Shown: one piece after another, positions 2,770 through 42,880 of the stretch | How positions within the stretch are numbered: position 1 is the first letter of the stretch | Layout of the letters: the number at the start of each line of letters is the position of its first letter | DNA from: Eledone cirrhosa | Lineage: Eukaryota | DNA: 64,000 nt | Reading direction: 5' to 3' | Assembly: GCA_964016885.1 (NCBI GenBank) | Contig: OZ024744.1 | Coordinates: 85,126,001 to 85,190,000 of the forward strand | Translations under genes and position numbers: made by a program | Notes under the pieces: model-generated | What the model saw: only the letters and a program-made list of their open reading frames with translations | The model's database searches: none | What the model was told of the DNA's origin: nothing

Positions 2770-3372
2770 TTTATACAATTTGACATTAACGACTATTAGT
2801 CCTCTATATCACCCAATACCTTGGATAAAGCCTTAGCATTCGCCAAACCAATTCTGACCTGACAGACGACGAGATAAAAATTATATTAGCTGCTAGGAAA
2901 ACAATAATTAAATTTGAAAACGCCTATTGAGAATTTAAGGATAGATTAGATAACTTTGACATCACGATGGGGGCTAATGACTCGGCTCAGGTCAGGGTTT
3001 TAGTAGGTATTTACATAGCCCATAGTTTACATAAGGAATTTAGTGACCTTCACGGTGGAATCTACAGAGATGACGCCCTTCTTCTAGTTAAGAACCTAAA
3101 TAACCAGAACATAGAAAGACTGCGCAAGAATATTAGAAAGACTCTCGGGAAACCAACCCTTAGCATAACGTACGAATATAGCACTAAAATAGTTAACTTT
3201 CTAGACGCGATGCTTAACCTAAATACGACCTTTTTACAAGAATAATGAAAACTTAGCATAGATCAACTGTAATTCGAACCTCCCACTCTCCATAATTAAG
3301 TCCGTTCCACGCAGCATATCCCTTAGGATCTCCGTCCTCTCGTCTAACCGACAAATCTTCGAGGAACACGTG
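2770..3372 (+). pseudogene. Penelope-like element reverse transcriptase fragment
   Basis: IQFDINDY*SSISPNTLDKALAFA, FDITMGANDSAQV..LVG, GGIYRDD, IVNFLDAMLNL match PLE RT motifs; contains stops and frameshifts. Confidence 0.75.
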
Positions 3373-3375
3373 TAC

Positions 3376-4315
3376 TCCTGGACGGACTCACCTACATAAA
3401 CTTTTCGGTTGAGGGTAGGCGGCCTTCATGTTACCATTGCTTTAGCAGGGGTCACCTGAGGGCTTCCTGTCCTAAATTAATGAATAAAAAAAAGGCTCTT
3501 CTGCCGACACCAATCAAAACAACGCAACCACCAACACCACCACAACAACAACAACAACACAAACACACAAAAATAACCACAACAAACACAGTCCCACCCA
3601 ACCCCACTCCACCTAAAACCACTGCAAAATCACATACAGACACAACAGCTCCCCAAGACATACCCCTCCCCAATCACACAGACGATACAACAAATGAGGC
3701 TATCTCGCCATCACCCAGTGAAGACGAGGGAGAAACCCATCGCTCGAAAAGAAAGAAAAGACATCACAAAAGCAAAAAACCAGCAAACACTACCACAAAC
3801 ATACAACCACCAACACAAACAACAAAAACATCACAAACAAAACCCCCACCTCCTGAAAACAAAATACCTACAACAAAACGAAAGCACACACAAGAACTAC
3901 AGACAAAAACAAACACAACACAAGAAAATTACACTTACACTTACATAAACACTGAAAACAAAACACTAATGGAGACCATCACGAACGACCCTTCGGTGAA
4001 AACCGAAGGGAAAACTTTCGCCCACTCTATTAAAAATAACAAAAAACTGAACCTAAAACTGATTAGGGTCCCTATACAAACTTATAGGTCCCTAAAAGAA
4101 ACATTTGAGGAGGATGTGGGGAATTCCTGCGTGAAACCACTTAACCGCGTCCTTGTCAAATGTCTCCCACCCCAGACACCCCCATCCCACCAGACCCCAC
4201 CCCACCAAACATCTCCGTCCCCACCCCGCCGGAAACCACCACCCATCCAGACAACCCCTCCAACACCCCCATGGAAATCGTGCGGTCTGGTCCCCAGGAG
4301 ACGAAGGGTGAGTGA
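3376..4315 (+). pseudogene. Tx1 ORF1 C-terminal part (CCHC zinc knuckle, T/P/K-rich tail)
   Basis: VEGRRPSCYHCFSRGHLRASCP (C-x2-C-x4-H-x4-C) in frame upstream of ORF 3480..4361; homologous to ORF1 of copies 2 and 3. Confidence 0.8.
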
Positions 4316-4348
4316 TCTCTTTTACTCTTTTAACTTTTCAGCACCAAC

Positions 4349-7300
4349 ATGGCCAATATAAGAGTTGGATGTGTGAACGTACGCGGCCTGGGGATGCCCT
4401 GGAAACAGGGCAAACTCTTAAACGACCTCATTTGCGAGTCCAGGATCCACAGCCAGCGACAGCTGGCCCCCATCTTCGATGACTTTGAGATCTACGCATC
4501 TCTCTGTCAACCGGGGGGTGGGGACGGAGTTGCCGTTTTGCTGCGGAAACACCTGGGCCTCGTAACACAGACGGTACATCTGGACCCGGAGGGTCGACTG
4601 GTGGTCCTAGACGTTGACGGTAGTGAAGGTGGAGCCTTCAGGCTGGTGGGACTATGTGGGACGTTGGGACTATGTGGGAGCATGTCCCGATAAAGGGGGG
4701 GGGGTGTAACAGCCTCAAACAGTTAATCGACCGATTTGACCTGGCCGATAGATATCGACTAGATTTTCCGACTGTGCCACTGTTGACGTGGACTAATCGT
4801 AACGGAACATCTAGATCGTACCTAGATAGGGTTCTAGTTAGAAATAAGGATAGGGACATGTTAAGCTGTCCACAAATGTTCATGGTTGCCTATTCAGATC
4901 ACAAACTAGTGACCTGCATGGCCAACCTTGATAGAACCCATAGACAAGGACCTGGCTACTGGAAGCTGAACTTGTCGTTACCGATAAGCAAATCCTACAG
5001 TAGACGGATTAGTACTTTAGTTAAACAGCACTTGACAGGGACCATTGTCAACAACAGATGGTGGTACTCTCTCAAGAGGGCAGTTAGACTAGACTCGATA
5101 GTTTTTAGTAAAGAATTAGCGTTAGATAGAAATAGAACCGAGAAGGAACTGGTAGATAAAGTAGAAGAGGCAATTAGAAGTGGCAACGTAGCCAGCGTGC
5201 TAGCAACGAGAACGGCCTTGGACCAGTTCTTCGACGCAAAGCACGAGGGCTGCGTTGTCAGAAGCAAAATACGTGCTCTGGGAAACGATGGAGCCAAAGC
5301 TGTTAGCTGGGCCCGAGTGACGGAGGCAAAAAGTGGCAACAAGTCCACGATTCGGTCTTTGAAGAACCAAAACGGACGCGTGATACGTGAGCCGAAGCAG
5401 ATGTGTGCGGCTTTTCAGAGGCACTTTGCTCAACTGTTCGGGAGGGGCGGCGCGCCGGGAGGGGCTATGGATTTCGGTCCATACCTCGACTCTCGGACAG
5501 CGAGGCAAAGTTCTGCGAAAAGCCGATTTCAGCCGCTGAGATAGGGGACGCGCTGAGCCAATGCGGCAAACGCAAATCTCCAGGTCTCGACGGTCTACCC
5601 TACGAATTTTACGTAGCAATGCCGGACTTATTCTCCGGTCTCCTGGAACGGTCTACTGCAACTGGCAACAGAACGGGAGAATTCCCAGTTCTGTAACCGG
5701 GGGCGTGGTCACACTAATCAGGAAGGACGAGAAGAAGGGGGATGACATAGGCAACTTCCGGCCCATAACTCTGCTAAACACAGAGTTACAGATTTTGGCC
5801 AAGGTGTTTGCAAAGAGGCTGGCGCTTGTCGTCGATAACCTGGTGGGAGAAGCGCAGACATGCGCAGTCCTGACCAGGTCCATACACGACAACCTCCACC
5901 TCATGCGATACATCATAGAGAGAGTAGGGTGTAAACCCGGCTTCGGTGGGGCCCTGAATCAACTTGGATCAGTCTAAGGCTTTCGATAGGGTTGACCATC
6001 CTTACCTGGATGCGGTGCTCGAGGCGGCAGGCTTCGGACCCGTGTTCAGGGGCTGGATTGCTGCAATGCACAACAGCAACATCTGCTCAAGGGTCACGGT
6101 GAATGGCTACTTCTCGGAGCCGTTCCATATTACGCGATCCATTCGACAGGGATGCCGTCTCTCTTTCCTTCTGTACGTACTGACTCTCGAGCCACTACTG
6201 CGGAAGTTGGAGCTATTGCAGGGCATCCCTCTGGAACCGGGACTGCGGAAAGCGGCGTCGGCCTACGCCGACGACGTTACAGTAATGGTGTCGAGCGCCT
6301 CGCAAATCGAGGAAGTCGGCACCTTACTGAAGGAATACGAAAGTTTCACAGGAGCGAAGCTGAACCGGGACAAGTCCATCGGTTTGCAACTCGGATCGTT
6401 GAGAGGCAAACCGATGCCTTCCGATGGCGTCGTCGGACGCTGGACGGAAGGAGCCGTAAAGCTGCTCGGGGTCTGGTTTGGTCCGGACCTCCAGGTGGAG
6501 AAGAACTGGAACGAAGTGACGGCCAAGGTGTTTGCACTCACCCAGAAGTGGGCCGAGTGCAAACTATCCTTGAAAGGTCGAGCGGAGGTGGCGAACACTT
6601 GTATAGCGTCCGCCATCTACTACCGCTTGACCGTCGTGCCTTGTCCAGCCAAAACGCTCGCCAAAATGGAGTGCGCGCTCTTCCGATTCCTTTGGAAGAG
6701 GCGGGCTCCTTTGGTGAGAAGATCCATCTGCTGCCAACACCCTTCTAACGGAGGGCTGGGGATGCCGTGGTTGACGATGCGCAAAGACGCGCTCAGGCTT
6801 CGGCATCTCTACGTATTCCTCACCGGACAACCGGTGTGGCCCCCGTTCGTGTGCCCCCCCCCCCCCCCGCTCGGGGTCTTGTTCCGTCCAGACCTTCAGG
6901 TGGAGAAAAACTGGAACGACGTCACGGCCAAGGTATTTGCGCTCACCAAGAAATGGGGAGAGTGCAAACTATCCTTGAAAGGTCGAGCGGAGGTGGCGAA
7001 CACTTTCATAGCGTCCGTCACCTACTACCGTTTGACGGCCGTGCCTTGTCCCCGTGAACATCTCACCAAGATGGAACGCATGCTCTTCCAGTTCCTTTGG
7101 ACGAAGCAGGCTCCACTGGTGAGGAGATTCGTCTGCTGTCACCACCCTTCCAACGGAGAGATGGGAATGCCGTGGCTGATGATGCACAAGTATGCGCTGA
7201 GGCTACGGCATCTACAGGTATTCCTCATCGACCCCCAAGCGGTGTGGGCACCGTTTGTGAGACAGGCCTTCCAACTTGTCTCTCTGACGGAGCTGCAGTC

Positions 7301-8024
7301 CTGGGTTAAGCGAAGACCGAAGAAGATAGGTGTCTGGCACATTGAATGCGCTCAGGCGCTCACAGTCCTCTGTCAAGCGGCACGGCAATTAGTGGAGACT
7401 CCACTTCGACATTCTATAGAGGGATTGTACGTCACAAGGGCGACGACGTGCTCGGATAGACTCTAGGCGTCGAAGACGATGAACTCACCAGTCTGTTTGG
7501 TAGGACTTTCCGCCCGGGACTCATGGACAACTTCCAGAGGTCCATGGCCTGGCAGTGCTAACGAGCAGCTCTACCAGTTCGTGACAAGATCTACAGGCAC
7601 GGACGCCCCGGCAAGGATCTTTCCAAGAGGACGTGTCCAAGATGCGCGCAGGACATTGAAACCGTCCTGCACGCAATTGTACACTGCCCGAGCGGAACAA
7701 CTGATGTCGTGTATGGGACAAATCCAGTGACTGCCAAGTCCATAGTAAGGATCAAACCGCCAACTTCTTTCAAAAACGAAAGAGGCGGTTTTCCTCTGTA
7801 TAGATGCTATGTTGAAAGAGGTTATATGGTGGACGAGATTGAGAGGACTGAGGACAGATGCCTTTCTCTCCGGACAACAGCTCATTCCCTTCTTTAGATA
7901 CCAATTTAGAAGGAGAATCAGAATGGAGAGAGGGGTACTGCACCCCAGTAAATTTACTGAAAGGTGGGTGAATGTGGCAAAAATGGCCCGAGTGATTGGG
8001 CCTTCTCTGTATATAAACCTGTAG
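4349..8024 (+). pseudogene. Tx1 ORF2 (APE endonuclease + RT + C-terminal CCHC), frameshifted, with internal ~400-bp duplication
   Basis: NVRGL, SYLDR, SDHKLV, GPGYWKLN, KSPGLDG, DQSKAFDRV, SIRQGC, AYADD, CPRC..ETVLHAIVHC motifs spread over ORFs 4349-8024. Confidence 0.92.
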
Positions 8025-8257
8025 GTTGAAGAAGAGAGCAAAAGGAAGAAAGGAACACTTGCACAACACGCTCCTGAAGTTGAGGGTTGTTCTATTGACG
8101 GGGTATTAAACAACCCATTTGTGGCGCCTCCCCCCTATTGGGGATCTCGATTGTTATAATTATTTGTTTTATATTTTTTTACACGATTGTATGTAAAATC
8201 CCCGGCATGTCTTTGTTTTGTCCCCTTTTCTTGTGCGCCCTTGTGGCTAATAAAGAA

Positions 8258-8264
8258 ATCTATC

Positions 8265-18782: not shown

Positions 18783-19800
18783 GTTATGAAGCAGTGCTCC
18801 TCTCTCTCTATATTCCTCATGTCCATGTAGCTCTGTTATGAAGCTATCAGCCTTTCTCTATATTCCTCATGTCCATGTAGCTCTGTTATGAAGCTATCAG
18901 CCTCTCTCTCTATATCCCTCATGTCCATGTAGCTCTGTTATGAAGCTATCAGCCTCTCTCTATATCCCTCATGTCCATGTAGCTCTGTTATGAAGCTATC
19001 AGCCTCTCTCTCTATATCCCTCATGTCCATGTAGCTCTGTTATGAAGCTATCAGCCTCTCTCTATATCCCTCATGTCCATGTAGCTCTGTTATGAAGCTA
19101 TCAGCCTCTCTCTATATCCCTCATGTCCATGTAGCTCTGTTATGAAGCTATCAGCCTCTCTCTATATCCCTCATGTCCATGTAGCTCTGTTATGAAGCTA
19201 TCAGCCTCTCTCTATATCCCTCATGTCCATGTAGCTCTGTTATGAAGCTATCAGCATTTCTCTATATCCCTCATGTCCATGTAGCTCTGTTATGAAGCTA
19301 TCAGCCTCTCTCTATATCCCCTCATGCCCATGTAGCTCTGTTATGAAGCTATCAGCCTTTCTCTATATCCCTCATGTCCATGTAGCTCTGTTATGAAGCT
19401 ATCAGCCTCTCTCTATATACCTCATGCCCATGTAGCTCTGTTATGAAGCTATCAGCCTCTCTCTATATACCTCATGTCCATGTAGCTCTGTTATGAAGCT
19501 ATCAGCCTCTCTCTATATACCTCATGCCCATGTAGCTCTGTTATGAAGCTATCAGCCTCTCTCTATATACCTCATGTCCATGTAGCTCTGTTATGAAGCT
19601 ATCAGCCTTTCTCTATATTTCTCATGTCCATGTAGCTCTATTTTATCGTTGCCCCCCCCCCCATCTCTATGTATCCCTCATGCCCATGTAGCACTGTTAT
19701 ATCGCTGTCCACCTCTTTATATTCTCCATGTACATATAGCTCTATTATATCGTTGTCCTCCCCCCTCTCTCTATATTCCTCATGTCCATGTAGCTCTATA
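18783..19800. repeat. 50-bp minisatellite, ~20 copies
   Basis: Unit TCATGTCCATGTAGCTCTGTTATGAAGCTATCAGCCTCTCTCTATATCCC; terminal copies degenerate. Confidence 0.95.
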
Positions 19801-19859
19801 TATCGTGGCTGTATTTAACGTATTGTTTCCCATCTCTGATCTCATTATGTGTTACTATT

Positions 19860-25800: not shown

Positions 25801-27990
25801 TTGCTGTTGTTATTATCATCGGTGTTGCTGTCGTTATTGTCATCGGTGTTGCTGTCGTTATTGTCGTCGGTGTTGCTGTCGTTATTGTCATCGGTGTTGC
25901 TGTTGTTATTGTTATCGGTGTTGCTGTCGTTATTGTCATCGGTGTTGCTCTTGTTATTGTCATCGGTGTTGCTGTCGTTATTGTCATCGGTGTTGCTGTC
26001 GTTATTGTCATCGGTGTTGCTGTCGTTATTGTCGTCGGTGTTGCTGTCGTTATTGTCATCGGTGTTGCTGTTGTTATTGTTATCGGTGTTGCTGTCGTTA
26101 TTGTCATCGGTGTTGCTCTTGTTATTATCATCGGTGTTGCTGTCGTTATTGTCATCGGTGTTGCTGTCGTTATTGTCGTCGGTGTTGCTGTCGTTATTGT
26201 CATCGGTGTTGCTGTTGTTATTGTTATCGGTGTTGCTGTCGTTATTGTCATCGGTGTTGCTCTTGTTATTGTCATCGGTGTTGCTGTTGTTATTGTTATC
26301 GGTGTTGCTGTCGTTATTGTCATCGGTGTTGCTCTTGTTATTGTCATCGGTGTTGCTGTTGTTATTGTCATCGGTGTTGCTGTCGTTATTGTCATCGGTG
26401 TTGCTGTCGTTATTGTCATCAGTGTTGCTGTCGTTATTGTCATCGGTGTTGCTGTCGTTATTGTCATCGGTGTTGCTCTTGTTATTGTCATCGGTGTTGC
26501 TGTCGTTATTGTCATCGGTGTTGCTGTCGTTATTGTCATTGGTGTTGCTGTCGTTATTGTCATCGGTGTTGCTGTCGTTATTGTCATCGGTGTTGCTGTT
26601 GTTATTGTCATCGGTGTTGCTGTCGTTATTGTCATCGGTGTTGCTGTCGTTATTGTCGTCGGTGTTGCTGTTGTTATTGTCATCGGTGTTGCTGTCGTTA
26701 TTGTCATCGGTGTTGCTGTTGTTATTGTCATCGGTGTTGCTGTCGTTATTGTCATCGCTGTTGCTGTTGTTATTGTCATCGGTGTTGCTGTCGTTATTGT
26801 CATCGGTGTTGCTGTCGTTATTGTCATCGGTGTTGCTGTCGTTATTGTCATCGGTGTTGCTGTTGTTATTGTCATCGGTGTTGCTGTCGTTACTGTCATC
26901 GGTGTTGCTGTCGTTATTGTCATCGGTGTTGCTGTCGTTATTGTCATCGGTGTTGCTGTCGTTATTGTCATCGGTGTTGCTGTCGTTATTGTCATCGGTG
27001 TTGCTGTTGTTATTGTCATCGGTGTTGCTCTTGTTATTGTCATCGGTGTTGCTGTCGTTATTGTCATCGGTGTTGCTGTTGTTATTGTCATCGGTGTTGC
27101 TGTCGTTATTGTCATCGGTGTTGCTGTCGTTATTGTCATCGGTGTTGCTGTCGTTATTGTCATCGGTGTTGCTGTTGTTATTGTCATCGGTGTTGCTGTT
27201 GTTATTGTCATCGGTGTTGCTGTCGTTATTGTCATCGGTGTTGCTGTCGTTCTTGTCATCGGTGTTGCTGTCGTTATTGTCATCGGTGTTGCTCTTGTTA
27301 TTGTCATCTGTGTTGCTGTTGTTATTGTCATCGGTGTTGCTGTCGTTATTGTCATCGGTGTTGCTGTCGTTATTGTCATCGGTGTTGCTGTTGTTATTGT
27401 CATCGGTGTTGCTGTCGTTATTGTCATCGGTGTTGCTGTCGTTATTGTCGTCTGTGTTGCTGTTGTTATTGTCATCGGTGTTGCTGTCGTTATTGTCATC
27501 GGTGTTGCTGTCGTTCTTGTCATCGGTGTTGCTGTCGTTATTGTCATCGGTGTTGCTCTTGTTATTGTCATCTGTGTTGCTGTTGTTATTGTCATCGGTG
27601 TTGCTGTCGTTATTGTCATCGGTGTTGCTGTCGTTCTTGTCATCGGTGTTGCTGTCGTTATTGTCATCGGTGTTGCTCTTGTTATTGTCATCTGTGTTGC
27701 TGTTGTTATTGTCATCGGTGTTGCTGTCGTTATTGTCATCGGTGTTGCTGTCGTTATTGTCATCGGTGTTGCTGTTGTTATTGTCATCGGTGTTGCTGTC
27801 GTTATTGTCATCGGTGTTGCTGTCGTTATTGTCATCTGTGTTGCTGTTGTTATTGTCATCGGTGTTGCTGTCGTTATTGTCATCGGTGTTGCTGTCGTTA
27901 TTGTCATCGGTGTTGCTGTTGTTATTGTCATCGGTGTTGCTGTCGTTATTGTCATCGGTGTTGCTGTCGTTATTGTCGTCTCTGTTGCTC
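19860..27990. repeat. 24-bp minisatellite, ~8.1 kb, roughly 335-340 copies
   Basis: Unit GTTATTGTCATCGGTGTTGCTGT(C/T); explains the giant 8-aa-repeat ORFs. Confidence 0.97.
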
Positions 27991-28029
27991 CAACTACTGC
28001 TGTTACTGTGGCTAACGTGCTACAGTTTT

Positions 28030-28110
28030 TACTGCTGCTGTTGTTGTTGTTATTGATGATGTTGATGTTGTTATTGATGATGTTGTTGATGTTGTTGATG
28101 TTGTTGATGC

Positions 28111-28148
<38 letters not shown>

Positions 28149-28457
28149 ATGTTTTTGATGTTGTTGTTGTTCTTCTTATTATTATTGATGTTGTTGTTGT
28201 TGTTGATGTTGCTGTTGATGTTGATAATGTTATTACAAGAAAAGTAAAGAGAAGAAAAGAAAAGAAAAGAAAAGAAAAGAAAAGAAAAGAAAAGAAAAGA
28301 AAAGAAAAGAAAAGAAAAAAATCAAAGTACTTGTAAACCAATTGTAATCCTCTTAGATTACTGTGAATTGGTGCGAAATAGAAAAAAGAGGCTAAATACA
28401 ATGGCAAAAAAAAATAATCCATTCGAGGAATAATTAAAGACATAAATAAATACATAA

Positions 28458-28514
<57 letters not shown>
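28030..28514. repeat. (TTG/ATG)n, (AAAAG)n and (AAT)n microsatellites
   Basis: Visible repeats; the (AAT)n at ~28457-28514 is the tail/target of Tx1 copy 2. Confidence 0.9.
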
Positions 28515-28515
<1 letters not shown>

Positions 28516-28762
28516 TTTTCTTTATTAACCATAAGGGTTTACATAAAGTAGACATTAAAGATAGTGCAGGACAATACAGGACGGTACAAATGGGCATTTC
28601 TGCGTGTAAAGAACAAAAACAGGATGTAACAAAAAATATCAATGAAAAATTCCCCAATAGGGGGGAGACTTCGGAGGGACATTTGTGGAGAAAGCCCTGT
28701 AAAAGGCCACAGTGACCCTGACCACCAAGGCAAGTGCCCTCTCCCAGTTTTCCACCTTTAAT

Positions 28763-31700
28763 TTACAGATACGTACTCAGAGTAGGCCCATTCACTCGGG
28801 CCATTCTTTCTACTCTCACCTATCTTTCAACAAAATGCTGAGAAGAGAGCTCTTCCCTCTCTACCCTGATTTTCCTTTTCAAATGAAATTTGAAAAAGTT
28901 AATCAGGGCATCACCGAAGAGGTAAGTGTTCGTCTTCAGCCCTTTCAAACGTGTCCACCATACTATCTCTTTCGCCATAGCCACCAGACAGATAAAAACT
29001 CCCTGCCCTTCCCGGCCAAAGGAAGAGGGCGGGGCAATCCTCACGATGGACTCAGATGATAGCCGGATCCGTCCTACACGCGACAGCAGGTGTTCGACAT
29101 AAACACACAAGTCAGCAATTTTCGGACACTGGACAAGTGCGTGCAGGACGGTTTCGTCGCCCTGCGCGCATCTCGGACATGCCCAGCTGACGGCACCTCC
29201 ATGCCTGTAGAGTTTATCCCGAACTGGCAAGGCTCCTCGGTAGCACTGCCAGGCCAGAGATTTCTGGAAGTTGTCCATAGGTCCCGGCCCGAAAGTTCTT
29301 CCGAAGAGATTGGTTAGTTGCTTTTCGTCGACGCCTAGAGTTTCCCCAAGTACGTCGTCGCTCTTCCCCTCCACTAATCCTCTATAGAACGCCAAGGTGG
29401 AGTTTCCACCGATCACATGGCCCGATTGGTCGAGGGCTGTGAGCGCCTGAAGACATTCCAGTCTCCAGGCGCTCCCTCTCGGTCTTCGCTTGACCCAGGA
29501 CTGCAGCTCCGTCAAGGAAACGAGTTGGGGAAATACGTGTCTAGCAAACGGCGACCACACCTGATCACCGTCGAGGAAGAGGTGGAGATGTCGTAGCCTG
29601 AGCGCGTGTCTGTGCATCATCAGCCACGGCATTCCCAGCCCTCCACGTAGCGGGTGTTGACAGCAGATGGACCACCTGACCATCTGAGCGCGTCCCTTCA
29701 CAAAAAGCGAAATAGCAAACGCTCCAGCGCAGTCAGGCGGGGCTTAGGACAATCTACGACGGTCAGGCGGTAGCAGATGACAGACGCGATGTACGCGTTA
29801 GCCACCTCCGCTCGACCTTTCAGGGATAGCTTCCTCTCCGCCCATTTCTAGGTGAGAGAAGCCACCCTGCTCGTCACCTCGTCCCAGTTTTTGTCCGTCT
29901 GGAAGTCCGGACCGAACCAGATCCCTAGCAATTTAACCGGTCCGTCCGTCCAGCGTCCGACGACGCTGTTGGACGGCATGGACCTGCCTCTCCAGGTGCC
30001 GAGCTGCAGCCCACTGACTTTTCCTGGTTGATCATTGCTCCTGTCACCGCTTCGTATTCTCTTAGTGTAGTGCCGATCGCCTCGATGTGTTTGGCGTTCG
30101 ACACCACTACGGTGACATCGTCCGCATATGCTGATACGGATCTTCCGCATCTTAGTTCGCGCGGGACGCCCCTCAACGTCTCCAGTTTGTGCAGTAATGG
30201 CTCGAGAGTCAATACGTACAAGAGGGACGAGAGGGGACATCCTTGGCGGACCGAGCGCATGATGTTGAACGGTTCCGACAGGTGACTGTTCACTCTCACC
30301 ACAGAGCAGATGTCGCTGTGCATGGCAGTGATCCAGCCTCTGAAGACGGGCCCAAAGCCAGCCGCCCTCAGGACTGCCGCTAGGTAACGATGGTCGACCC
30401 TATCGAAAGCTTTCGACTGATCTAAATTGATCAAGGACCGACCCGTGCCACGTTCCCTAGCTACTCTCTTTACGATGTATCGCATGAGGTGGAGGTTGTC
30501 GTGGATGGATCTGTCGGGAATGGCGCATGTCTGCGCCTCTCCCACCAGACCACCAACGACAAGCGCCAACCTCTTTGCTAGCACCTTGGCCAAAATCTTG
30601 AACTCTGTGTTTAGCAGAGTTATGGGCGTGAAATTATCTATGTTATCCCCTTTGTTCAGATGCTTTCTCAGCAGTGCCACCGCTCCTCGGCTCACAGAAC
30701 TGGGAATTCTCCCGTTCTGTTGCCAGTTGCAGTAGACGTCCGCCAAGAGGCCTCCGATCAAGTCTGGCATCTGTACGTAAAGTTCATAGGGCAGACCATC
30801 CAAACCAGGCGATTTACCCCTTGTGCAGCCAGTCATTGCCTCCCTTACTTCAGCGGCTGTTATCGGCTTTTCGCAACACTCCGCCTCAGTGGCCGAGAGC
30901 CGCGGCAGTCCGTCGAGGTAGACACTAAAGTCCATCCCTCGACCCGGCCCACCGCTGCCCCCGAACAGCTGAGCAAAGTGTCGCTGAAAAGCTTCACACA
31001 TTTGCCCGGGATCGAGTAGCATGCGCCCGTCGTGGTCCACCAAAGACCGGATCGTGGCTTTGTTGCCACGACGCGCCTCCGCCACTCGGGCCCATTGAAC
31101 GGCTTTCGTCCCCTCGTGTCTGAGAGCACGCACCCTAGCTCTGACAACGCAGCCTTCGTGCTTTGCATTGAAGAATTGGTCAAGGGCCAATTTCGCTGCA
31201 AACCCGTCGGTCGCATTGCTTTTGCTAAGCGCCTCGTCTAATTTTCTGACTAGTTCTCCCTCTGCTCTATTTTTCTCTATTGCTAAAGCCTTACTAAACC
31301 TAATCGATCCTATTCTAATCGCTCTTTTCAGAGCAAACCACCACTTGTTGTTGACGATGGCCCTCGTCAACGCCCGCTTAACTAGTTCGCTAATCCGGTC
31401 TCTGTAGGCATTGCGCGCTGGTAAGGACGCTTTAGCTTCCAGTAGCCGGGTCCTCGTCTATGAAGCCTATCTAAGTCAAGCACACAGTTCACGAATTTGT
31501 GGTCCGTGTAGTTGACTATCTTGAATTGTGGATAGCCTATGCTAGACCTATCTATTTCCCTACAAAATACTCTATCTAGATATGATCTGGATGACCCTAT
31601 GAGATTTGTCCAAGTCCACATTGGTACATTCGGGAAATCCAATCGGTACCTGTCAGACAGTTCAAAACGCCTGAGCAGGCTGGTGAGACTCTTGCACCCT

Positions 31701-32177
31701 CCTCCCCTATCCACTAATCCCACACAATCCCAGCGTGCATCTAAGATCCCGTTCCAGTCGCCCACTAACACTAAAGAGCAGGACATTCCAAGAAAGGTCT
31801 CCAGACGCAGGAACAAATCAGGCCACCCTGCTCCTGTCGGGGCATAGACGGCCACTAACCTGAAAGCTTGCCCGTCTCCGCTATCACGTCCAGCACCACC
31901 AACTTACCTTCTGGGTCCAGGAAGATGGCCCGTATGGCAAGATCCAAACCTCTCCGAAAAATCACAGCAACTCCACCCCCGATCCCGGATGGCTGGGAGA
32001 TGCGTACACATCGTAGCCGCCGAAGATCGGTGCGAAGGCCCGTGCTTCGGAGATTCTGGTCTCGCTGATGGCCACTACATCTATGTTTAGTGACCTGAGG
32101 TCGTTGAGCAGGTGGCCCTGCTTCCATGACGACCCCAAGCCACGCGCATTTATGCTGCCTATTCTGAGTGAGGTCAT
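28763..32177 (-). pseudogene. Tx1 copy 2 ORF2 (APE-RT-CCHC), frameshifted
   Basis: INARGL, SET, GDWN, SYLDR, TDHK, GPGYWKL, KSPGLDG, DQSKAFDRV, SVRQGCPLS, AYADD, CPRC..ETVLHALVQC. Confidence 0.92.
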
Positions 32178-32211
32178 GTTGAAATGGAGTGGAAAAGATG
32201 GGAAAGACCAC

Positions 32212-34161
32212 TTACCTTACTTCTCGTAGAGGAAGGACGGTTTTTCCATCCTTTTCACTGCTTGTGGCCTCCTCAGGAAGGATGTCCTTATAAATCCTCC
32301 TGGAGAGTGCTTGTCGGAAGTCTCTGATGTCTTTGGGGAATTTTTGTTTTAGTATCAATTTCTGTGTGATGCGAGTGATTTGTATGTGTGTAGGTGGTGT
32401 GAACTTTTGGGTTGTTGTGTAGTCTTTTTCTGTGATGCTGGTGTTGTGTTGGATGTAGTGTAATAATTGGTTGTTGTTCAAATTTAATACTGTGTAGTGT
32501 GTATCGTTTTGGTTGTTTTGTTTTCTTTACGTTTGTTGTGGGTTCGTTTCTGTTTCGCATTTTGGTGACTTTTGTGGTGTAGGTGATGGTGGTGTTGGGG
32601 TTAATGATGGTGATGGTATTGGTGTTTGGGGTGATGGGGTTGGTGATGCTGGTGTGGATGGTGGCATATCTGTCCTAACTTTTTTGTTTGTTAATTTATT
32701 TGTTTCCCTCTGTATTTTGTTTTTGGAGGGGGAAGGAAGAGAATTTTTTCTTTTTTGGTTTCTTTTTTTCTTTTTTTCTTTTTTCCTGATACCGTTTCCC
32801 ACTCCTCGTCGTCACAATCTGTCTCCAGTTGTGATAGGCAGGGGAGTGGAAAATCCTCCACAGGCGTTAGTTTTGGTTGTGGCGTGGTGGATGGTGTAGG
32901 CGCTGGTGATAGTTCTGAAGCGTTGGGTGGTGGTGGTGTTGGTTTTGCTGCTGGTGGTGGTGTTGGTTTTGCTACTGTTGCTGGGGTTGTTGCTGTTACA
33001 GTTGCTTCTGTTGTTGCTGCTACAGTTGTTGCTGCCATCTCTGATGCTGGTGGTGTTGATGGTTGAGTCACTGGTGTGGGTAGGAGAGGTGGCCTCAACC
33101 TTTAACCTGAGGGCAGAAAGCCCTTAGGTGGGTTCCTTCACCACAAATAACACACCTAGGCTTTCTGCCCTCGACAATTACGGTGAGGTGGCTGCCGTCA
33201 GTGAGGTCTATTACCTCTGGGATCTCCTCAATGCTTTTTTGGTCCGCTCGGATCAGGTGCTCCATCCCAGATCCGGACCAGTTCTCCTGCTTTTCTTTCG
33301 CTATTTCGATTATCTTGGTGTTGGCTTCGATGCCGGCGAGGACGGCAACTATTAGCCAGGGAATTTCGATGGCCGGTGGAACGTGGGTGACCCTGATCTT
33401 TACGAGTTTCTGGCCACAACAGCTTGGGACGAGTGTGAAGTCGTCACTTCTTAATGGGGCAATGGAGTGTTCTCTAGCCTCCTGTGGTGTTTCAAAGAAC
33501 ACGTCCACGGTTCCATACTTCTGCCCACGTCTGATGTGGGGTTTTTTTGCCCACACATGTCCCAAAGCTTTTTGGATTTGGGACTCGGATGCCCGTTCCA
33601 CTCGGCGCGATTTTATATTAATTGTTCCATTTTGTTAGGTGTGGGGTGAGAGTGACCCTGTACCCATCTTTCTTTACCAGTTTTTTGCCTTCTTCTAAAT
33701 CCTCCTGAGTTACCTGAAATGCTTCGCACTGTTTTGCTACTCTGGCAAAACTCAGGGTGGTTTTCTTAATGTCATTGTTGCTATTGTTGTTACCGTTATT
33801 TTTGTTATTATTAATTTTAGTTTCAGTTGTGGCGGTGGCGGCGTCAGTGGTGTTCGGTGTGGAAGAGTTCATTTTGGTTGAATTCATTTCGATATCACGA
33901 GTTAATTTATTTTTTTCTTTTGTTTCTGTTGTCGCGGTGGTGGTGGGGTGGTGGTTGTCGCAGTGGTGGTGGTGGTGGTGGGGGGGGGTTAACACCTGCA
34001 GTCATTGGTAATGGCGGGAAATGAATGTCTGTCTGAGACAAATTTAAAATATTGCTACTGCTTATATTCTTTTTAGTGTTGGCAAACGTAGTAATATTTA
34101 CAATGGTGGTGTCGGTGTGAGGTGTTAGTTTGTGAGAAAGGAGTAATTCTAAGTCAGCCAT
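32212..34161 (-). pseudogene. Tx1 copy 2 ORF1, frameshifted
   Basis: SFARVA, ERASESQIQKAL..., VEGRKPRCVICGEGTHLRAFCP knuckle, homologous to copy 3 ORF1. Confidence 0.85.
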
Positions 34162-34391
34162 GATGTTTCAAAGAAAAATTTTTGTTTGATAATTATAAAA
34201 GTTTAAATTTTGGGCTCAAGGCCCCAATATTTTGGGTGTCCTTTTCAGATAACTATGTATGTGCACTTATATACAGTTAACAATAAAATTTTCCATGAAT
34301 GGCAATTTTGAACAACTAAAAATAACAAACCTTTGCGGAGATCACGATGATACTATTTACTACGTAGGTCGCCAATAATAATAATAATAAT

Positions 34392-34500
34392 CACAAGGGC
34401 TGACATTAAAAAAACATTACAGACGGCATAGGACGGTACGATGTGGGTTTTGTGCGTGTAAAGATTTTTTTAATTATTTATATAAGAAATGAAAAAGAAA
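34392..34500 (-). mobile_element. Very short Tx1 3'UTR stub
   Basis: CACAAGGGCTGACA..AAAACATTA.AGACGGCA..GTGGGTTTTG..CGTGTAAA duplicates the 3'UTR at 34548-34630. Confidence 0.75.
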
Positions 34501-34796
34501 AAAGACATAGAAACATATATATATATAAACAATGGTTTCTTATTGGCCACAAGGGCTGACACGAAGAAAAACATTAGAGACGGCACAGAACAGTACAGAA
34601 CAATACAAAGTGGGTTTTGGTCGTGTAAACAGGTTATAACAAAATCGGGCTAGAAATCCAAAAAAATTCAAACAACAAAAATTCTTCAAGAAGGGGGAAA
34701 CCTCCGAGGGTCACTCGTGGTGAAAACCACACAAAAGACCACGGCCAACCTGACCACCAGGGCAAGATCTCTCTCTCACTTTTCCCACTCCTCAGT

Positions 34797-37700
34797 CTAC
34801 AGACGTATACTCAGAGCGGGTCCGATCACTCGGACCAGACTCGCCACTTTCACCCACCTTTCAACAAACTTACTAGAAGACAGCACTTGATTTTCCTCTT
34901 CAAGTGAAACTTGAAAAAGTTAATCAGGGATTGGCCGGAGAGGAAAGTGTCCGTCTTCAACCCTTTCAACCTTGTCCACCACACAATCTCTTTCGCCATG
35001 GCCACCAGGCAGATGAAAACTGCCTGCCCTTCCTCCTCTTTAAAGGGTGACGGCGGGGCTATCTGCACAATGCACTCAGTCGATAACTGGATCCCTCCTA
35101 CACGGGACAGCAGCTGTTCGACATAGCTCCACAAGTCAGCAATCATCGGGCACTGAACGAGTGCGTGCAGGCCGATTCCATCGCCCTGCGCGCATCTCGG
35201 ACAGGCTTGGCTGACGGCACTTCTGTGCCTGTAGAGCTTATCCCGAACCAGCAACGCTCCCCGGTAGAACTGCCAGGCCAAGGATTTCTGGAAGTTGTCC
35301 ATAGGCCCCGGTCTGAAAGTTCTCTTGAAGAGGGCAAACAGCTGATCGTCTTCGACACCCAGGGTCTCCCCGAGAACGTCGTTGCTCTTCTCCCTCCACC
35401 AGCCCTCTATAGAACGCCGAGGTGGATGTTCCACCGATACTCGTACCCAGCCGGTAGAGGGCGGTGAGCGCTTGGAGTCATTTCCAGCTTCCAAGCGCTA
35501 TCCCTCGGTCTTTTCCTGATCCAGGACTGCAGCTCCGTCAAGGAGACGAGCTGGCGAAAAGCGCGTCTGGCAAACGGCGACCACACCTGTTCACCGTCAA
35601 GGAATCATCAGAGATGTCGCAGCCTCAGCGCATGTTTGCGCATCATCATCCACGGCATGCCTAGTCCTCCACGCAACGAGTGTTGACAGCAAATGGATCG
35701 TCTGACCATGCTAGCACGTCCCCTCCACAAAAAGCGGAAGAGAAGGCGCTCCATTTTGGTCAGATATGGACGGGGCAAGTTACGACGGTCATGCAGTAGC
35801 AGATGACGGACGCTATGTGCGCATTCGCCACCTCCGCCCGACCTTTCAGAGACAGCCTCCTCTCGGTCCATTTCTAGTTTGGAGAGACCATCCTGCTCGT
35901 CACGTCGCTCCAGTTTTTCTCCATCTGGAGGTCCGGACCGAACCAGATCCCGAGCAATTTAACCCGTCCTTCCGTCCAGCGCCCCACGACGTTGTCGGAC
36001 GGTATGGACTTGCCTCTCCAGGTGCCGAATTGCAAACCCACCGACTTTTCCTGGTTTATCATTGCTCCTGTCTTCGCTTCGTATTCTTTGAGAACGGTGC
36101 CCAGAATCTGGAAGTGTTTGGTGCTCGACACCACCACGGTGGCGTCGTCGGCGTAAGCTGACACGGATCTCTCGCATCCCAGTTCGCGTGGGACCCCCTT
36201 CATCGTCTCCAATTTTTGTAGTAAAGGTTCTAGGGCCAGTACGCACGAGAGGGAGGAGACGGGGCAACCCTGGCGGACCGAGCGCATGATGCTGAAAGGC
36301 TGCGACAGGTGACCATTCACCCTCACATTAGAGCAGATGTCGCTGTGCATCGCAGCGATCCAGCCCCTAAAAAACGGGCCCGAAGCCGGCCGCCTCGAGG
36401 ATCGCAGCCAGGTACCGATGGTCAACCCTATCAAATGCTTTAGATTCATCCAAGTTGATCAGGGCCCCACTCGTGCCAGGTTCGTTAACCACCCTCTCTA
36501 TGATGTATCGCATGAGATGGAGGTTGTCGTCGATGAATCTGTCCGGAATGGCGCATAGCTGCGCCTCTCCCACCAGATCACTGACGACAAGCGCCAATCT
36601 CTTTGTTAACACCCTTCGCCAAAATCTTAAACTGGGAATGCTCCCGTTCTGCTGCCAGTTGCAGTAAACATCTGCTAAGACGTCGCCAAACAAGTCTGGC
36701 ATATACGCATAAAGCTCGTAGGGCAGACCATCCAAACCTTGCGATTTACTCCTCGTGCAGACAGACATCGCGACCCGTATTTCACCTGCTGTTATCGGCT
36801 TTTCGCAGCACTGCGCTGCGGTCGCCGAGAGCCGCGGCAGTCCGTCGAGGTATGCACCGAAGTCCATACTACGATCCAGCCCGGCGCCGAACCCGAACAA
36901 TTGAGAAAAGTGCTGTGGGAAAGTCTCACATATCTGCTCGGGTTCGAGCAACATGCGCCCGTTTTGATCAGGCAAAGACCGAATTGTGGACTTGTTGCTA
37001 CGTCGCGCCTCCACCACCCGGTCTCATTAAACGACTTTCGTCCCCTCGTGTCTTAGAGCACGCGCTCTAGCTCTGACAACGCAGCCTTCATGCTTTGCGT
37101 TGAAGAATTGGTCGAGAGCCAATCTCGCTGCAAGCACGTCGGTTGCGATGCCTGTCCTAAACGCCTCTTCTAGCTTTCTAACTAACTCACCCTCTACTCT
37201 ATTTTCCTCTATCACTACTCCTTTGCTAAACCTTATCGATTCTGCTCTAATAGCCCTTTTCAGGGTAAACCCCCACCTGTTGTTGACCATCGCACCCGTC
37301 AACGCACACTTAACTAATTCGCTAATCCAGTCTCTGCAAGATTTGGAGGAACGACGCGTTAAGCTTCCAGTAGCCGGGCCCTTGCCTATGGAGTCTAGCT
37401 AAGTCAACTTCACAGATCACAAATTTGTGGTCCGTGTAGTCGACTACTTTAAATTGTGGACAACCTACACTAGCCTTATCTGTTTCCCTACAGACTACCC
37501 TATCTAAATACGATCTGGATGATCCGATGCCGTTTGCCCATGTCCACATTGGCACATTCGGATAATCCAGTCTATACCTGTCAGACAGTTAAAAACGTTT
37601 GAGCAGGTTGTTGAGGCTTTTACACTCTCCTGCCCTATCTACTAGCCCCACATAATCCCAGCGTGCATCTAAGACATCTTTCCAGTCGCCGACTAACACT

Positions 37701-38104
37701 AAAGAGTGCGACGTTCCAAGAAAGGTCTCTAGGCGTCTGAGGATATCTGGCCGTCCTGCTCCTGTTGGGACGTAGACGGCTACTAGCCTGAAAGCATTGC
37801 CTTCGCTGCCGGTCACGTCCAACGCCACCGACTTACCTTCTGGGTCCAGGAAGATGGCCCGTATGGCGAGATCCAAGCCTCTCCGAAAAAGCACGGCCAC
37901 CCCTCCCCCCGATCCCTGACGGCTGGAAGATGCGTATACATCGTAGCCACCGAAGATCGATGCAAAGGCTTGTGCTTCGGAGATTCTGGTCTCGCTGATG
38001 GCCACCACATCTATGTTTAGTGACCTGAGGTCGTTGATCAGATGACCCTGCTTCCAAGATGACCTTATATATACATTTATACTGCCTATTCTAAGTACAG
38101 CCAT
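34797..38104 (-). pseudogene. Tx1 copy 3 ORF2 (APE-RT-CCHC), frameshifted
   Basis: MAVLRIGSIN, SETRI, GDW, SYLDR, TDHK, GPGYWKLN, DESKAFDRV, SVRQGCP, AYADD, CPRC. Confidence 0.92.
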
Positions 38105-38136
38105 GCTGGATGAGAAACGGGGCAAGTGAGAAAGGA

Positions 38137-40076
38137 TTACTTACCTTGATTGTGTGGTGAAGGGAGAGTAGAACCGTCCCTTTGGCTGGTCATGGGTGTT
38201 TCCAAGAGGATGTCAGTGTATATCCTCTTGGTAACCGGATCTCTGAAGTCTCCAACTGCGTTGGGGAATTTTTGTTTTAAAAGTTTGTACTGTTCTATTT
38301 TGATTTCAATGATGCTTATGTTTGTCGGGAGAGTTCTTGGTGTTGGTGGGGTGTAGTAGTTTTTTTCTGTGATGTCTGTGTGCTGCTTTATATGTTGTAT
38401 GAGTTCTTTATTTGCCATGTTTATGGCTGTGTACTTTTTGGGGGGAGGGGTGATTTTGTTGCTGCTGAGTGTGTGTGTTTTGTTGTGTTTGCGATGTTGG
38501 TGTTTTTGGCGATGCTGGTGATGGTGTGGTTGTTGTTGCTGGTGTTGCTTGTGGTGGTGGTGGTGATGTTGGTGGTGTTTCTGCAAGTCTCCTTGCAGCC
38601 TTTACCCCTCTTTGTCTGCCTTCACTTTTGGAGAGGGAAGCTAAGGGGTTTTTCCTCTTTTGTTTATTGTGGCAGACCGTTTGCCACTTCCCTCCCGCCT
38701 CATACTCCATATCAGATTCCGTGGCGTTTGGGAGAGTATGAGTTCCACTGCTGTTGGTGGTGGTAGTGGAGCCCGCTCAGCCGATTTTGCTGCCAGTGTG
38801 GCTACTGCGACTGTTGGTGTTGCCGCCACTGCTGCCGCTGTTTTAGTTGTCCGTGGCCTTGGTATGGGTGCCACCGACGTTTCCCTCCTACTCCCCATGG
38901 AAGGGTCTTCTGCCTCTGTTGCCTGCCCTGCTCTTGGTAGTAGCGGATCAGGCGTTGGAAGGATAGGGGCCCTCTTCTTGGCTGTCTTCTGCGGGCAGAA
39001 GGCCCTGAGGTGACCCTTCAGCCCACGGAGATAGCACTTTGGGCGCCTTCTTTCCACGCTTATAGGGAGTTGGAGTCCTTCCTCGAGGTCTATGATGTCT
39101 GGGATGGCCTCGATGCACTCCTGGTCAGTCCGACTTAGCATTTGCATGCCTATTCCTGACCAGTTCTCTCTTCCCATTCTCTGTATTTGCAGTATGGTGG
39201 TCTTCTCCTCGATTCCAGCCAGTACAGACGAGGCCAGCCAAGGTATGTGCACTTCGGGCGGTACCTGGGTCACTTTGACCCTCACAATTTTCTGCCCGCA
39301 GTAGGCGGGCACCAAGACTATCTCCTCACTCTTTAGGGTTTCCAAAGAGTGAGACTCCGCCTTTTGGGGGGTGGCGAAAAGTACGTCTACTATGGCGTAC
39401 TTTTTGCCTCGGGTGATGTGGGTTTTGCGCCCCTTGACACACGCCAAGGCCTTTTGGATTTGAGCCTCCGTGGCCCTCTCCACTCGATGTGACATTTTGC
39501 TTACGGTGCGGTAAGTCAGCGTGCGCAGCTGCTGGTCTTTGAAGAGATTGGGTGGTTTCAGGAAAACTCTATTGTCGTTTCTCGACACCATGGCTCTTGC
39601 GACTGCTATCTCCTCCTCCGTGATTAGCACTGTCTCTATATTTCGTGCTACACCTGCGAAAGAGGTGGCCCCTTTTTCAGTGGCGCCATGGTGCTGTTGC
39701 TGTTGCTACTGCTACAAACGGTGTTGTTGGTGTTGTTGCTGTTATCATTGTTGTAGTTGGCTGTGTGTTTTGTTGCCACCGTTGTTGTTGTTTTCGGTGC
39801 AATTTGTATTGATGCTGTTGGTGTTGTCGTTGTTTATTTTCTTGTTAGTGGTGTTAATATCGTTGTTGCATTTGTTGTCATTTTTTTCTGTTGTCTGTAT
39901 TTTGGTTGACGTTGTTGTAGTTGGTGTGGTAATTTTTCAAAATTAGTGTTCTCAGTGTTGTTGTCTTTGTACACGTTGTTTGTGGTGGTGTTTGTTGTAA
40001 CAATGTTTGTAATCCTTCTCTCAACTTTTATGTCAGACGACAGCAGACATATTGCTGGGGGCCGTGGCTCAGCCAT
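38137..40076 (-). pseudogene. Tx1 copy 3 ORF1, frameshifted
   Basis: ORF 38641..39630 with VERRRPKCYLRGLKGHLRAFCP and C-terminal LLKQKFP..DFR..RIY.DIL shared with copy 2. Confidence 0.85.
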
Positions 40077-40304
40077 ATTTTTTTTTTAAACATTTTTTTT
40101 TTTTAAATTAAAATGTTCAAATATTTGGGCCAAAAGGCCCAAACATTATACTTTCACCCTCACAGGGAAAAGTGTAAGGGCCTATATCCCTTACACAACA
40201 AGAAATATTTAACAAGAAATAATTTTAACAGGCAAATAAAGCGACTTACTGGGAGCGAGCAAAAAGCGTCCGAACAGACCGATAATAATAATAATAATAA
40301 TAAT

Positions 40305-41400
40305 GATTTTTTATCGGCCACAAGGGACTACATATAGGAGCAAAAACTCAGGGTCAGTTTCAGTAACAATAAAATCGTGTAAAAAATGTATATAAAGTAA
40401 CAATAAACACTAAAAATACAAATACATAATTCCCCAATAGGGGGAGAACCACTCAGGGGCGACACAAAAACCCCAGCGGACCTGAACCAGCCGAGGCTCC
40501 GAGCGCACCCAACCGAAGAGGATGCCCCTCTTCTCTCCAAATCAGCCAGCTTTCAGGCGCACGGTCAGAATAAACCTATTCACACCGGTCATACTCGCCA
40601 CATCCACCCACCTTTTAGCAAGTGAATCTTGAAAAGGTTGATGAGAGATTGGTCTAAGAGAAAAGTGTCTGTCTTCAGTCCTTTCAACCATGTCCACCAC
40701 ACAAACTCTTTCGCTACCGCCACCAGATAGAGGAAAACTGACTGCCCTTCCCGGCCAAAAGAAGGCAGCGGCTCGATCTTCACTATGCAGTCGGTCGATA
40801 GTCGGATCCGTTCTACACGCGACAACAGCATAACTCCATAAGTCAGCAGTGCATGACCAGTAGTGCCCCTCGGTAGCACTGCCTAGCTAGGAAAAAATGG
40901 TGGAGCAACTTACCATCCGGGCTCTGTTGGAACTCGTGTGGTTCGATCTCCATATCTGGTGGGTGCTCTTTGGGGAATCCGTTTAAAAGCCTGCTTGTCG
41001 CTTTTACATTTGGGGTTCCCGCGTTTTGCGGGAAGCTCCCTTTAATGCTTTTATATGTATGTGATGCCATTCACACTATCATTAGTGACTGTGGTACTTT
41101 GAAGATCTCCCCCTCTTCCTCAATTTCCTCACATTGAGGGACATCAGTTCTTGGTTGGCCCTTCTTATTAGCACAAAGTTTGATGTCTGTGTTATTGGTT
41201 GTTCAGGTTGTGCAAGTTTTCGTTTGGGTGGTGATATTGGTGTGGTTGTGGATGTGTCTGTGTTTGTTGTGTGGGTGGGGTCTGCGTTTTCTATTTGTGT
41301 GCGTGCGGTGTTGGAGGCTTTTAAAAACATTTTCTGTGTCTTCATATCTGTTTTTTTTTTTTGCTCGTTATGGTAGTTCCTGTTTGTGTTTTGTTTGTGC
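40305..41400 (-). mobile_element. Tx1 copy 4: 5'-truncated and internally deleted (ORF1 C-terminus joined to ORF2 C-terminus and 3'UTR)
   Basis: ANQELM..TYKSIKGSFP (ORF1-like) followed directly by QCYRGAL and VWWTWLKGLKTDTFL; 3' end CCCTTGTGGCCGATAAAAAATC(ATT)n. Confidence 0.8.
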
Positions 41401-41422
41401 ATAAGTCGATACGCTCATTTGA

Positions 41423-41510
41423 CTCCAAGATAAAGGAGTGTGTCCTCCAAGATAAAGGAGTGTGTCCTCCAAGATAAAGGAGTGTGTCCTCCAAGATAAA
41501 GGAGTGTGTC
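41423..41510. repeat. 22-bp tandem repeat x4
   Basis: CTCCAAGATAAAGGAGTGTGTC repeated four times. Confidence 0.95.
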
Positions 41511-41779
41511 CTTCATCACCTCTAGCTTCCACAGCAAAAAACATACAAGAGTGATTTGAGATAATACTCTTGATGGAACGAGTCTGTGATTCAAAACGGT
41601 ACACTAGGTGAATATTTACTCTGATCGGCTTTGCAGATACTGTTCTATATTGAAGAAATCCTGCCTCTGAAAGCATGACTGAACCCGATTCTCTGAGGAC
41701 ACCCATCAATCAACGATGGTTGACATTTTCAAATTATTTTTATAGTTTTAAGTTAATCAGGGACCCAACAAGGGCAGGT

Positions 41780-42880
41780 TAGTTACTACGACATACTATA
41801 AGAGTTGGAGACTCTGCAATATGCCGGTAATCACATGGGCTTTTTTCCCTCCCGATCAAAATAAGATGAGAAGTAAGAATATTTTGCAGACACCTTGACC
41901 AAAATTTCTGCATACAGTAGAGGTATGGACCGGAAATTATACATGACGCCCATTCTATTCTCCTGTTCGCTTTCTTCCTCAGCAGTGCCTCCGTTTCCCT
42001 GTTAGTACAGCTGGAAATGTTCCCAGCGTGCAACTGCTTGCGAGACGATAGGTATCTACTAAAAGAAGGCCAAACAAATCTGGCAGATATCCATGAAGCT
42101 TATACAAAATTTCGCCAACCCAAGCTACTTTTCCCACGAAAAACAAACCACAAACTGCCAAATATATTTCAACTACTATTATCTTTTTTTTTTCTTCTCA
42201 CTTTAAGAAGTAATTCCTCAAACTGCACCGGAAAATATATTATATTTTTGTGTACATATTTAATTGGATCCAAATTACTAACCTCTTCTGCTTTACCATA
42301 TGGCGGAGTCCATTAATTTCCAATTCGCCAGTATTGTGTTTTACTTTATCTTTTCACCTCTTTTTTTTTATTCTGTAGTTTCATTACCCACATCAATTTG
42401 GCTCTTTCAAACAACTTTTGCATGTCAGGAAGAACAGCTAAATTATTTTGATGCTGGGATTTAAATTTACTTTAATTCTGCTCCCTGTGTGACCACTTTT
42501 CGGTAGATTCCTTCTCTTGTTTCTTGTGTACATTCATTTGGTCTCAAACTTCTCCTTTATTCCATCGCATTAGGAGAAGTTGGAGTCTTGGTCTGTTATT
42601 CATGTTATAGGGGAGAGGGAACGGGTTTTTGTTGATTGGTATCCTTCCTTAACAGCTTTCTTTCTTATTTCGTATATTTGGTTGACGTTCTTCCCACAAT
42701 TATTCAGCGATTAGTTCCTAGTAAATAATGACAAAGCTCAACATTTTGTATTGTTGGTCTTATATTTTTTGTATTTTGTAGTTTCTGTTATTTAGCTTCC
42801 CAGGTAAACCTTCATCAAACAAACTTATGACCAAATTTATTAAAGTAGTAACTATTCCTTCTTTCATGTAGATAATACAT
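41780..42880 (-). pseudogene. Older, heavily decayed L1/Tx1 ORF2 fragment
   Basis: YKLHGYLPDLFGLLLVDTY and AGNISS..ALLRK resemble YELY..MPDLFG.LLADVY / NGRIPSS..ALLRK of the intact copies; PGKLN ~ YWKLN. Confidence 0.55.

Follow-up and report, generated by a model that had tools for sequence, protein, structure and literature searches.

A conserved splice-donor motif within a predicted ORF2-spanning helix in Tx1-like LINEs of Eledone cirrhosa

The window, which is the whole 64,000-nucleotide stretch of Eledone cirrhosa DNA analysed here, contains L1-clade LINEs with a splice-donor motif at the end of ORF1. Comparison of the sequences showed that this donor was kept in three reading phases, that no acceptor close to it was conserved, and that the two flanks of ORF2 were complementary to each other family by family. 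The comparison supports a position of the conserved donor within a predicted helix spanning ORF2, and both the donor and the helix are very probably real features under selection. We propose that the donor may sometimes be spliced to the TAG at the end of ORF2, which would give an mRNA for ORF1 only, and that the helix would protect the full-length RNA. The chance that this proposal is right is close to even, although slightly on the lower side.

General Features of the Elements

The elements in the window were two-ORF LINEs of ~5.9 kb, and their ORF2 carried endonuclease, RT, and zf-RVT domains. PF03372, PF00078, and PF13966 were all found on one intact ORF2 of 1145 aa, for which the closest solved structure was that of L1 ORF2p (E 6e-48). 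A separate upstream ORF1 of 593-597 aa, which contained a zinc knuckle, was open as far as the donor, and there were no LTRs. The domains, the order of the ORFs and the lack of LTRs place these elements in the L1 clade of non-LTR retrotransposons. The element ends adjoined microsatellites of the (TATC)n or (ATT)n type. The Tx1 label was that of the initial annotation; we take it to be a probable fit, and the preference for repeat targets agrees with it. The search for relatives returned no named Tx1 sequence, and full-length ORF2 relatives (P0002-P0012) were found at 39-42% identity.

Copy 3 (34533..40281, minus strand, ends approximate) was a decayed full-length two-ORF L1-clade (Tx1-like) LINE, and its 5′ flank was (ATT)n. 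Copy 2 (28514..34373, minus strand) was also a full-length LINE, and it belonged to a sister family. Copies 4, 3, and 2 were arranged head to tail across 28514-42000, where the insertion point was the (ATT)n tail of the neighbour. Copy 1 (3368..6851, plus strand) was a LINE with a 5′ truncation. It was followed at 6869-8258 (plus strand) by a 3′ end belonging to a different family (77% identity), so copy 1 represented a chimera or a nested pair. A region of ~8.5 kb at 19586-28321 displayed strong T skew and stop-free frames on both strands, and it was probably a tandem repeat array.

Family Y was young, with copies ~99% identical and many intact ORF2 frames (L221-L230, e.g., L225:1684-6939). 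Its ORF1 and ORF2 shared the same frame, with one TAA within the donor as the only stop between them, an arrangement not shared by other families. Donor-like and T-rich acceptor-like words were observed in the 5′UTR of this family (L221:1400-1520), and a donor-like word was found near the 5′ end of copy 3 (40281-40180, minus strand). A 5′UTR intron together with the donor at the end of ORF1 would bracket ORF1 as an exon.

Conservation of the Donor at the End of ORF1

The initial annotation had described splice-like motifs at the ORF1/ORF2 junction of all four copies, and the coordinates and lengths of these motifs were all verified in the window sequence. In copy 3, the donor G/GTAAGT (38139..38145, minus strand) was in phase 1, and the ORF1 stop TAA was located at 38139-38137. 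The junction of copy 2 (32175..32216, minus strand) comprised a phase-2 donor with the ORF1 stop TAA within it, a spacer without AG, and the ATG at 32177. The junction of copy 1 (4307..4351, plus strand) comprised the phase-1 donor G/GTGAGT, a family-fixed CAG at 4339-4341, and the ATG at 4349. In copy 4 (40887..40914, minus strand), the donor and the start of the spacer were followed by a deletion that brought the 3′ end of ORF2 next to them, with a TAG at the breakpoint. An ORF1 stop in or adjoining the donor, which had been claimed for all four copies, was found in copies 1-3, whereas copy 4 had lost its stop.

Thirty copies from the 3.0-Gb genome were aligned for each window copy. GTRAGT was present in 27/30 copies of the copy-3 family and in 30/30 of both the copy-2 and the copy-1 families. 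The persistence of the donor and the pyrimidine tract across the copies held at this level, and both were family features. When related copies were selected only by the Pfam endonuclease model, GTRAGT preceded ORF2 in 22 of 27; the other five were three point mutants, one deletion, and one copy in which the site was out of view. A second, hand-picked set had GTRAGT in 10/10 related copies, and the motif was absent at the 10 unrelated endonuclease loci of this set.

All ten family representatives had G/GTRRGT, in which positions -1, +1, +2, +5, and +6 were invariant. We take this motif to fit the spliceosomal donor (U1) consensus at every position. The donor was in ORF1 phase 0 in one representative, phase 1 in four, and phase 2 in five. 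Identity at four-fold ORF2 sites was 39-73% between non-sister families; the family-f representative was frameshifted, so only 8 four-fold columns were left for the count across all families, and 1 of them was invariant. The three ORF1 phases and the diverged silent sites of ORF2 indicated that the donor was kept as nucleotides. A C-terminal Gly-Lys/Glu was rejected as the cause of the motif, because the ORF1 phases differ.

In 11/23 old single copies, the stretch searched contained no exact donor, as expected from decay, and this count was biased by the deliberate inclusion of donor mutants. Among 29 distant L1-clade elements from metagenomes, one had a donor-like word before ORF2. The donor trait was therefore lineage-specific.

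Absence of a Conserved Acceptor near the Donor

The spacer of copy 3 (38105..38138, minus strand) was pyrimidine-rich and formed the predicted 5′ arm of the helix. Its CAG (38108-38106) was a minority variant of CAA. Before C-ATG, the aligned copies of this family had CAA in 27/30 and CAG in 3/30, and the 353 exact matches across the genome comprised 329 CAA and 24 CAG. The copy-2 family had CAA in 30/30 and a spacer without AG; the CAA of copy 2, which had been read as possible decay, is the family state. Family Y had a 28-nt spacer, which lacked AG in 26 of the 28 copies reaching the donor. The expectation had been that young copies keep the AG, and the young families were without it.

The only family with a fixed CAG was the copy-1 family, where it closed a 34-nt GT...CAG in 30/30 copies. 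Some copies of the d group also had AG in the spacer. The TAG of copy 4 was located at the deletion that fused the spacer to the 3′ end of ORF2, and its relatives differed there. The YAG acceptor reported at the junction of three copies is not a family feature outside the copy-1 family, and the support for a shared phase between acceptor and ATG is reduced to this one family. A micro-intron at the junction is not supported. An acceptor ~450 nt into ORF2 was rejected because it corresponded to the coding LVGDWN motif. Fusion of ORF1 and ORF2 by stop read-through was also rejected, since the frame offset was 0, 1, or 2.

Predicted Base Pairing across ORF2

The spacer arm was taken as the non-coding sequence that begins 15 nt before the donor and ends at the ATG, and it was tested in 13 elements from five family groups. 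Among 312-363 windows, the best partner of the spacer was located within 15 nt of the ORF2 stop in 13/13 elements, and the z-scores of the pairing against 200 shuffles ranged from -1.5 to -7.2; these 13 representatives correspond to only about five independent groups. The best partner came from the same family group in 11/13; the exceptions to cognate pairing were families Y and c2. Of 16 further copies, 13 again had their best partner at the ORF2 stop. A partner at this position was found in 0/22 outgroup L1-clade elements with complete ORF2, for which the windowing was slightly different.

The spacer arm and the arm at the ORF2 stop were 3.4 kb apart. The 3′ arm of copy 3 (34737..34796, minus strand) was a purine-rich stretch 3′ of the ORF2 stop, and it was complementary to the spacer and the donor. 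In copy 2, the ORF2 stop and the 3′ arm occupied 28703..28765 (minus strand), and this stop was TAA, so it offers no acceptor.

Co-folding yielded 44-64 predicted pairs, which extended from the donor through the spacer to the first ORF2 codons. The AUG (38102..38104, minus strand, in copy 3) was predicted to pair in a single register with the ORF2 stop and the sense codon before it in 12/13 elements, with two-sided changes at three pairs. The same bases formed this register in the further copies, and no other part of the helix was conserved as well. The base at the second position before the ATG lay opposite the U of the stop, where A (CAA) and G (CAG) both pair. This accounts for the acceptor noticed in the initial annotation.

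In the copy-2 and copy-3 families, the prediction had every base of the donor paired, and in the other families part of the donor was looped out. The strand facing the donor varied between families, so pairing alone does not explain the constant donor, and U1 snRNA is the obvious candidate. The portion of the 3′ arm facing the donor (34775-34760, minus strand, and the same place elsewhere) appeared by eye as a short inverted repeat in several families, which could form a competing local hairpin. Rfam gave no matches on two loci. The pairing supports the pyrimidine tract as one arm of a predicted long helix, the other arm being the sequence that immediately follows the ORF2 stop. Base pairing explains this tract better than a role as a polypyrimidine tract does. 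For the donor, the earlier caveat that the two sites may have distant partners is supported.

Candidate Distal Acceptor at the ORF2 Stop

The ORF2 stop was TAG in 11/13 representatives. In copy 3, this TAG (34797..34799, minus strand) was the candidate distal acceptor. When the donor was joined to the TAG, the ORF1 stop was regained within 1-2 codons in 11/11 cases, compared with 1/22 for the wrong phases. In new copies, the stop-restoring rule was followed in 7/15 overall, that is, 2/2 in family f, 5/5 in d5, 0/4 in e, and 0/4 in f2. The join to TAG would add 4-55 codons in families e and f2. The failure of these two families implied that much of the 11/11 may be inherited from one phase-1 ancestor. 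The support for the TAG as acceptor is moderate, because the representatives were mostly phase 1 and related, and because the helix constrains the same bases. The helix alone can account for the TAG and the bases that follow it.

The tract before the TAG contained 11-15 pyrimidines among 20 positions, and it was coding. In the copy-2 families, ORF2 ended with TAA, and the donor and the out-of-phase stop were both kept. The TAA-ending families (L133 and L233) had a T-rich YAG in the 3′UTR, 158 and 179 nt after the ORF2 stop; it was absent at the aligned place in c3a. No acceptor was common to all families.

Search for Spliced Copies and RNA

The pattern search in five families detected splice products in 0/100 distinct genomic places departing from the donor. 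Family Y contributed 12 of these variant places, the copy-3 family 24, the copy-1 family 11, the copy-2 family 47, and the d group 6, and they were point changes, or small or microhomology deletions. Exact matches to the unspliced junction numbered 864 in family Y and 561 in the copy-3 family. The patterns were blind to joins whose second exon begins like the unspliced donor (GTA in family Y; G in the copy-3 and copy-2 families; GTG or G plus non-T in the copy-1 family), and the pattern for the d group covered only GTA plus non-A. The 0/100 result counts against a micro-intron, whose spliced RNA would have retained ORF2. It is weaker evidence against an ORF1-only RNA, which would need ORF2 in trans. 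For human L1, the available part of one report describes retrotransposed copies of RNAs that need proteins in trans as rare (PMC5860796).

Read contigs of unrecorded kind from four runs were compared with one element of the copy-2 family. One contig crossed the donor unspliced, and none of the 15 joints listed, out of 520, fell at the donor. No spliced RNA was observed, and contigs of this type do not bear on the question either way. Hundreds of near-identical young copies exist in the genome, and one RNA data set can decide the splicing question.

Proposed Mechanism

In the proposed mechanism, U1 would bind the donor co-transcriptionally. As soon as the ORF2 stop is transcribed, splicing and closure of the helix would compete, and the 3′ arm would be transcribed just after. 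The spliced RNA would provide an excess of ORF1 protein and, lacking ORF2, it would rarely be retrotransposed. Translation of ORF2 would start at its own AUG on RNA that has not been spliced. In the full-length RNA that gets copied, the donor, the AUG, and the acceptor would be masked by the closed helix. It is possible, but we hold it only tentatively, that the whole RT gene acts as an optional intron and that a helix of 3.4-kb range, by masking both splice sites, decides between ORF1-only and genomic RNA. The mechanism is weakened by the 0/100 spliced copies among the donor variants, and by the copy-2 families, which end in TAA yet keep the donor.

Alternative Explanations

An unlikely alternative, which nevertheless deserves serious attention, is that the donor binds U1 without splicing. 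Incomplete transcripts with an exposed donor would then be retained in the nucleus or protected from early cleavage, and the helix would hide the donor only once the 3′ end is made, thereby serving as a completion check. An invariant donor without an acceptor common to all families, the predicted pairing of all or part of the donor in the helix, and the lack of spliced genomic copies (0/100) are consistent with this explanation. Nuclear retention by 5′ splice-site motifs, which was reportedly found in one study, would also agree with it. An action of U1 that is independent of splicing was described at the EVD donor, according to the accessible text of that paper (PMC5580714). However, ORF2 had a GC content of 52-55% and 0-2 AATAAA/ATTAAA hexamers, which implies that there is little early cleavage to suppress, and protection from early polyadenylation was rejected as the main role of the donor for this reason. 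In addition, the in-phase stops after the TAG are left unexplained by U1 binding without splicing.

It is also quite unlikely that the helix is a translation device and that the donor-like word persists for protein binding or as a context for termination, with U1 uninvolved. The helix would hide the ORF2 AUG until it is opened by the ribosome ending ORF1, or it would return ribosomes from the ORF2 stop to the start. Coupling in SART1 requires a downstream structure, as far as the accessible portion of that study goes (PMC5972666). The register between AUG and stop was the best conserved in the helix (12/13), and the ORF1 stop was located 9-35 nt before the AUG in 12/13, which is a reinitiation distance. 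Against a translation device alone, the motif fits the spliceosomal donor consensus everywhere and ignores the reading phase. A translational role of the helix and the splicing model are compatible, and both can hold.

That the donor and the complementarity are functionless leftovers of common descent and base composition is very unlikely. The families share descent from one ancestor, any purine tract can readily pair with a pyrimidine tract, and strong energies were common among non-cognate pairings. However, the silent sites diverged and the donor did not, and the partner was at the ORF2 stop in 26/29 tests compared with 0/22 outgroup elements.

The least credible is the initially proposed splicing of a 27-39 nt micro-intron, with ORF1-ORF2 fusion or a stop/restart arrangement; apart from the fixed 34-nt segment of the copy-1 family and the AG of some d-group spacers, it is largely refuted by the missing AG in the young families, by donor phases of 0, 1, and 2 in different families, and by the lack of any copy minus exactly the short segment among the variant copies of five families.

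Comparison with Known Systems

Kibi and Koshi are Tx1-clade LINEs that target microsatellites, as described in the accessible text of that report (PMC4494074). Like these elements, the LINEs studied here have two ORFs, an ORF2 with AP endonuclease, RT, and zf-RVT, an ORF1 with a zinc knuckle, and insertion at (TATC)n/(ATT)n. In the descriptions of Kibi and Koshi that were found, there was none of a donor at the end of ORF1 or of pairing around ORF2. The literature search, conducted without Repbase entries and most subscription journals, returned nothing on a donor at this junction or on a helix spanning ORF2. In an octopus repeat paper that includes L1-Tx1 families, the words 'splic', 'intron', and 'ORF1' were absent from the main text, supplements aside (PMC13282606).

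Splicing of human L1 (SpIREs) uses sites in the 5′UTR and ORF1, and the part of the report available describes the products as dead ends (PMC5860796). The likeness to our elements, as far as that part goes, is that splice sites occur within a LINE RNA and that trans-dependent RNAs are rarely retrotransposed. In contrast to human L1, the donor here keeps its position at the ORF1 stop in different families. Termination-reinitiation is the route to ORF2 translation in SART1 and mammalian L1, and SART1 needs a downstream structure, in the accessible sections of the source (PMC5972666). Our elements similarly have an ORF2 with its own AUG shortly after the ORF1 stop, and RNA structure appears to be involved. 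However, the structure in SART1/L1 is local in those sections, whereas the partner predicted here, at the ORF2 stop, is separated from the spacer by 3.4 kb. A helix in which a start codon faces the stop codon of the same ORF would be an unusual RNA switch, and it is directly testable.

For the proposed splicing, the analogy is with Ty1/copia elements. Arabidopsis EVD and Drosophila copia produce a Gag-only subgenomic RNA from a conserved donor, and U1 at this donor also acts without splicing, according to the available part of the report (PMC5580714). Within that part, the shared features are a conserved donor where the structural gene ends, a spliced RNA (proposed in our case) for an excess of the structural protein, and a possible role of U1 free of splicing. 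The Ty1/copia elements described there are LTR elements with one Gag-Pol frame and proof at the RNA level. In contrast, our elements are bicistronic LINEs in which the proposed intron is all of ORF2 and the predicted helix lies over both sites. To our knowledge, only a few LINEs have a described way of making abundant ORF1 and scarce ORF2 protein from a single RNA, and each of them uses reinitiation on an RNA that is not spliced. If the proposed splicing is true, LINEs would have a second solution for the ratio of ORF1 to ORF2 protein, namely an ORF1 message spliced in the manner of copia.
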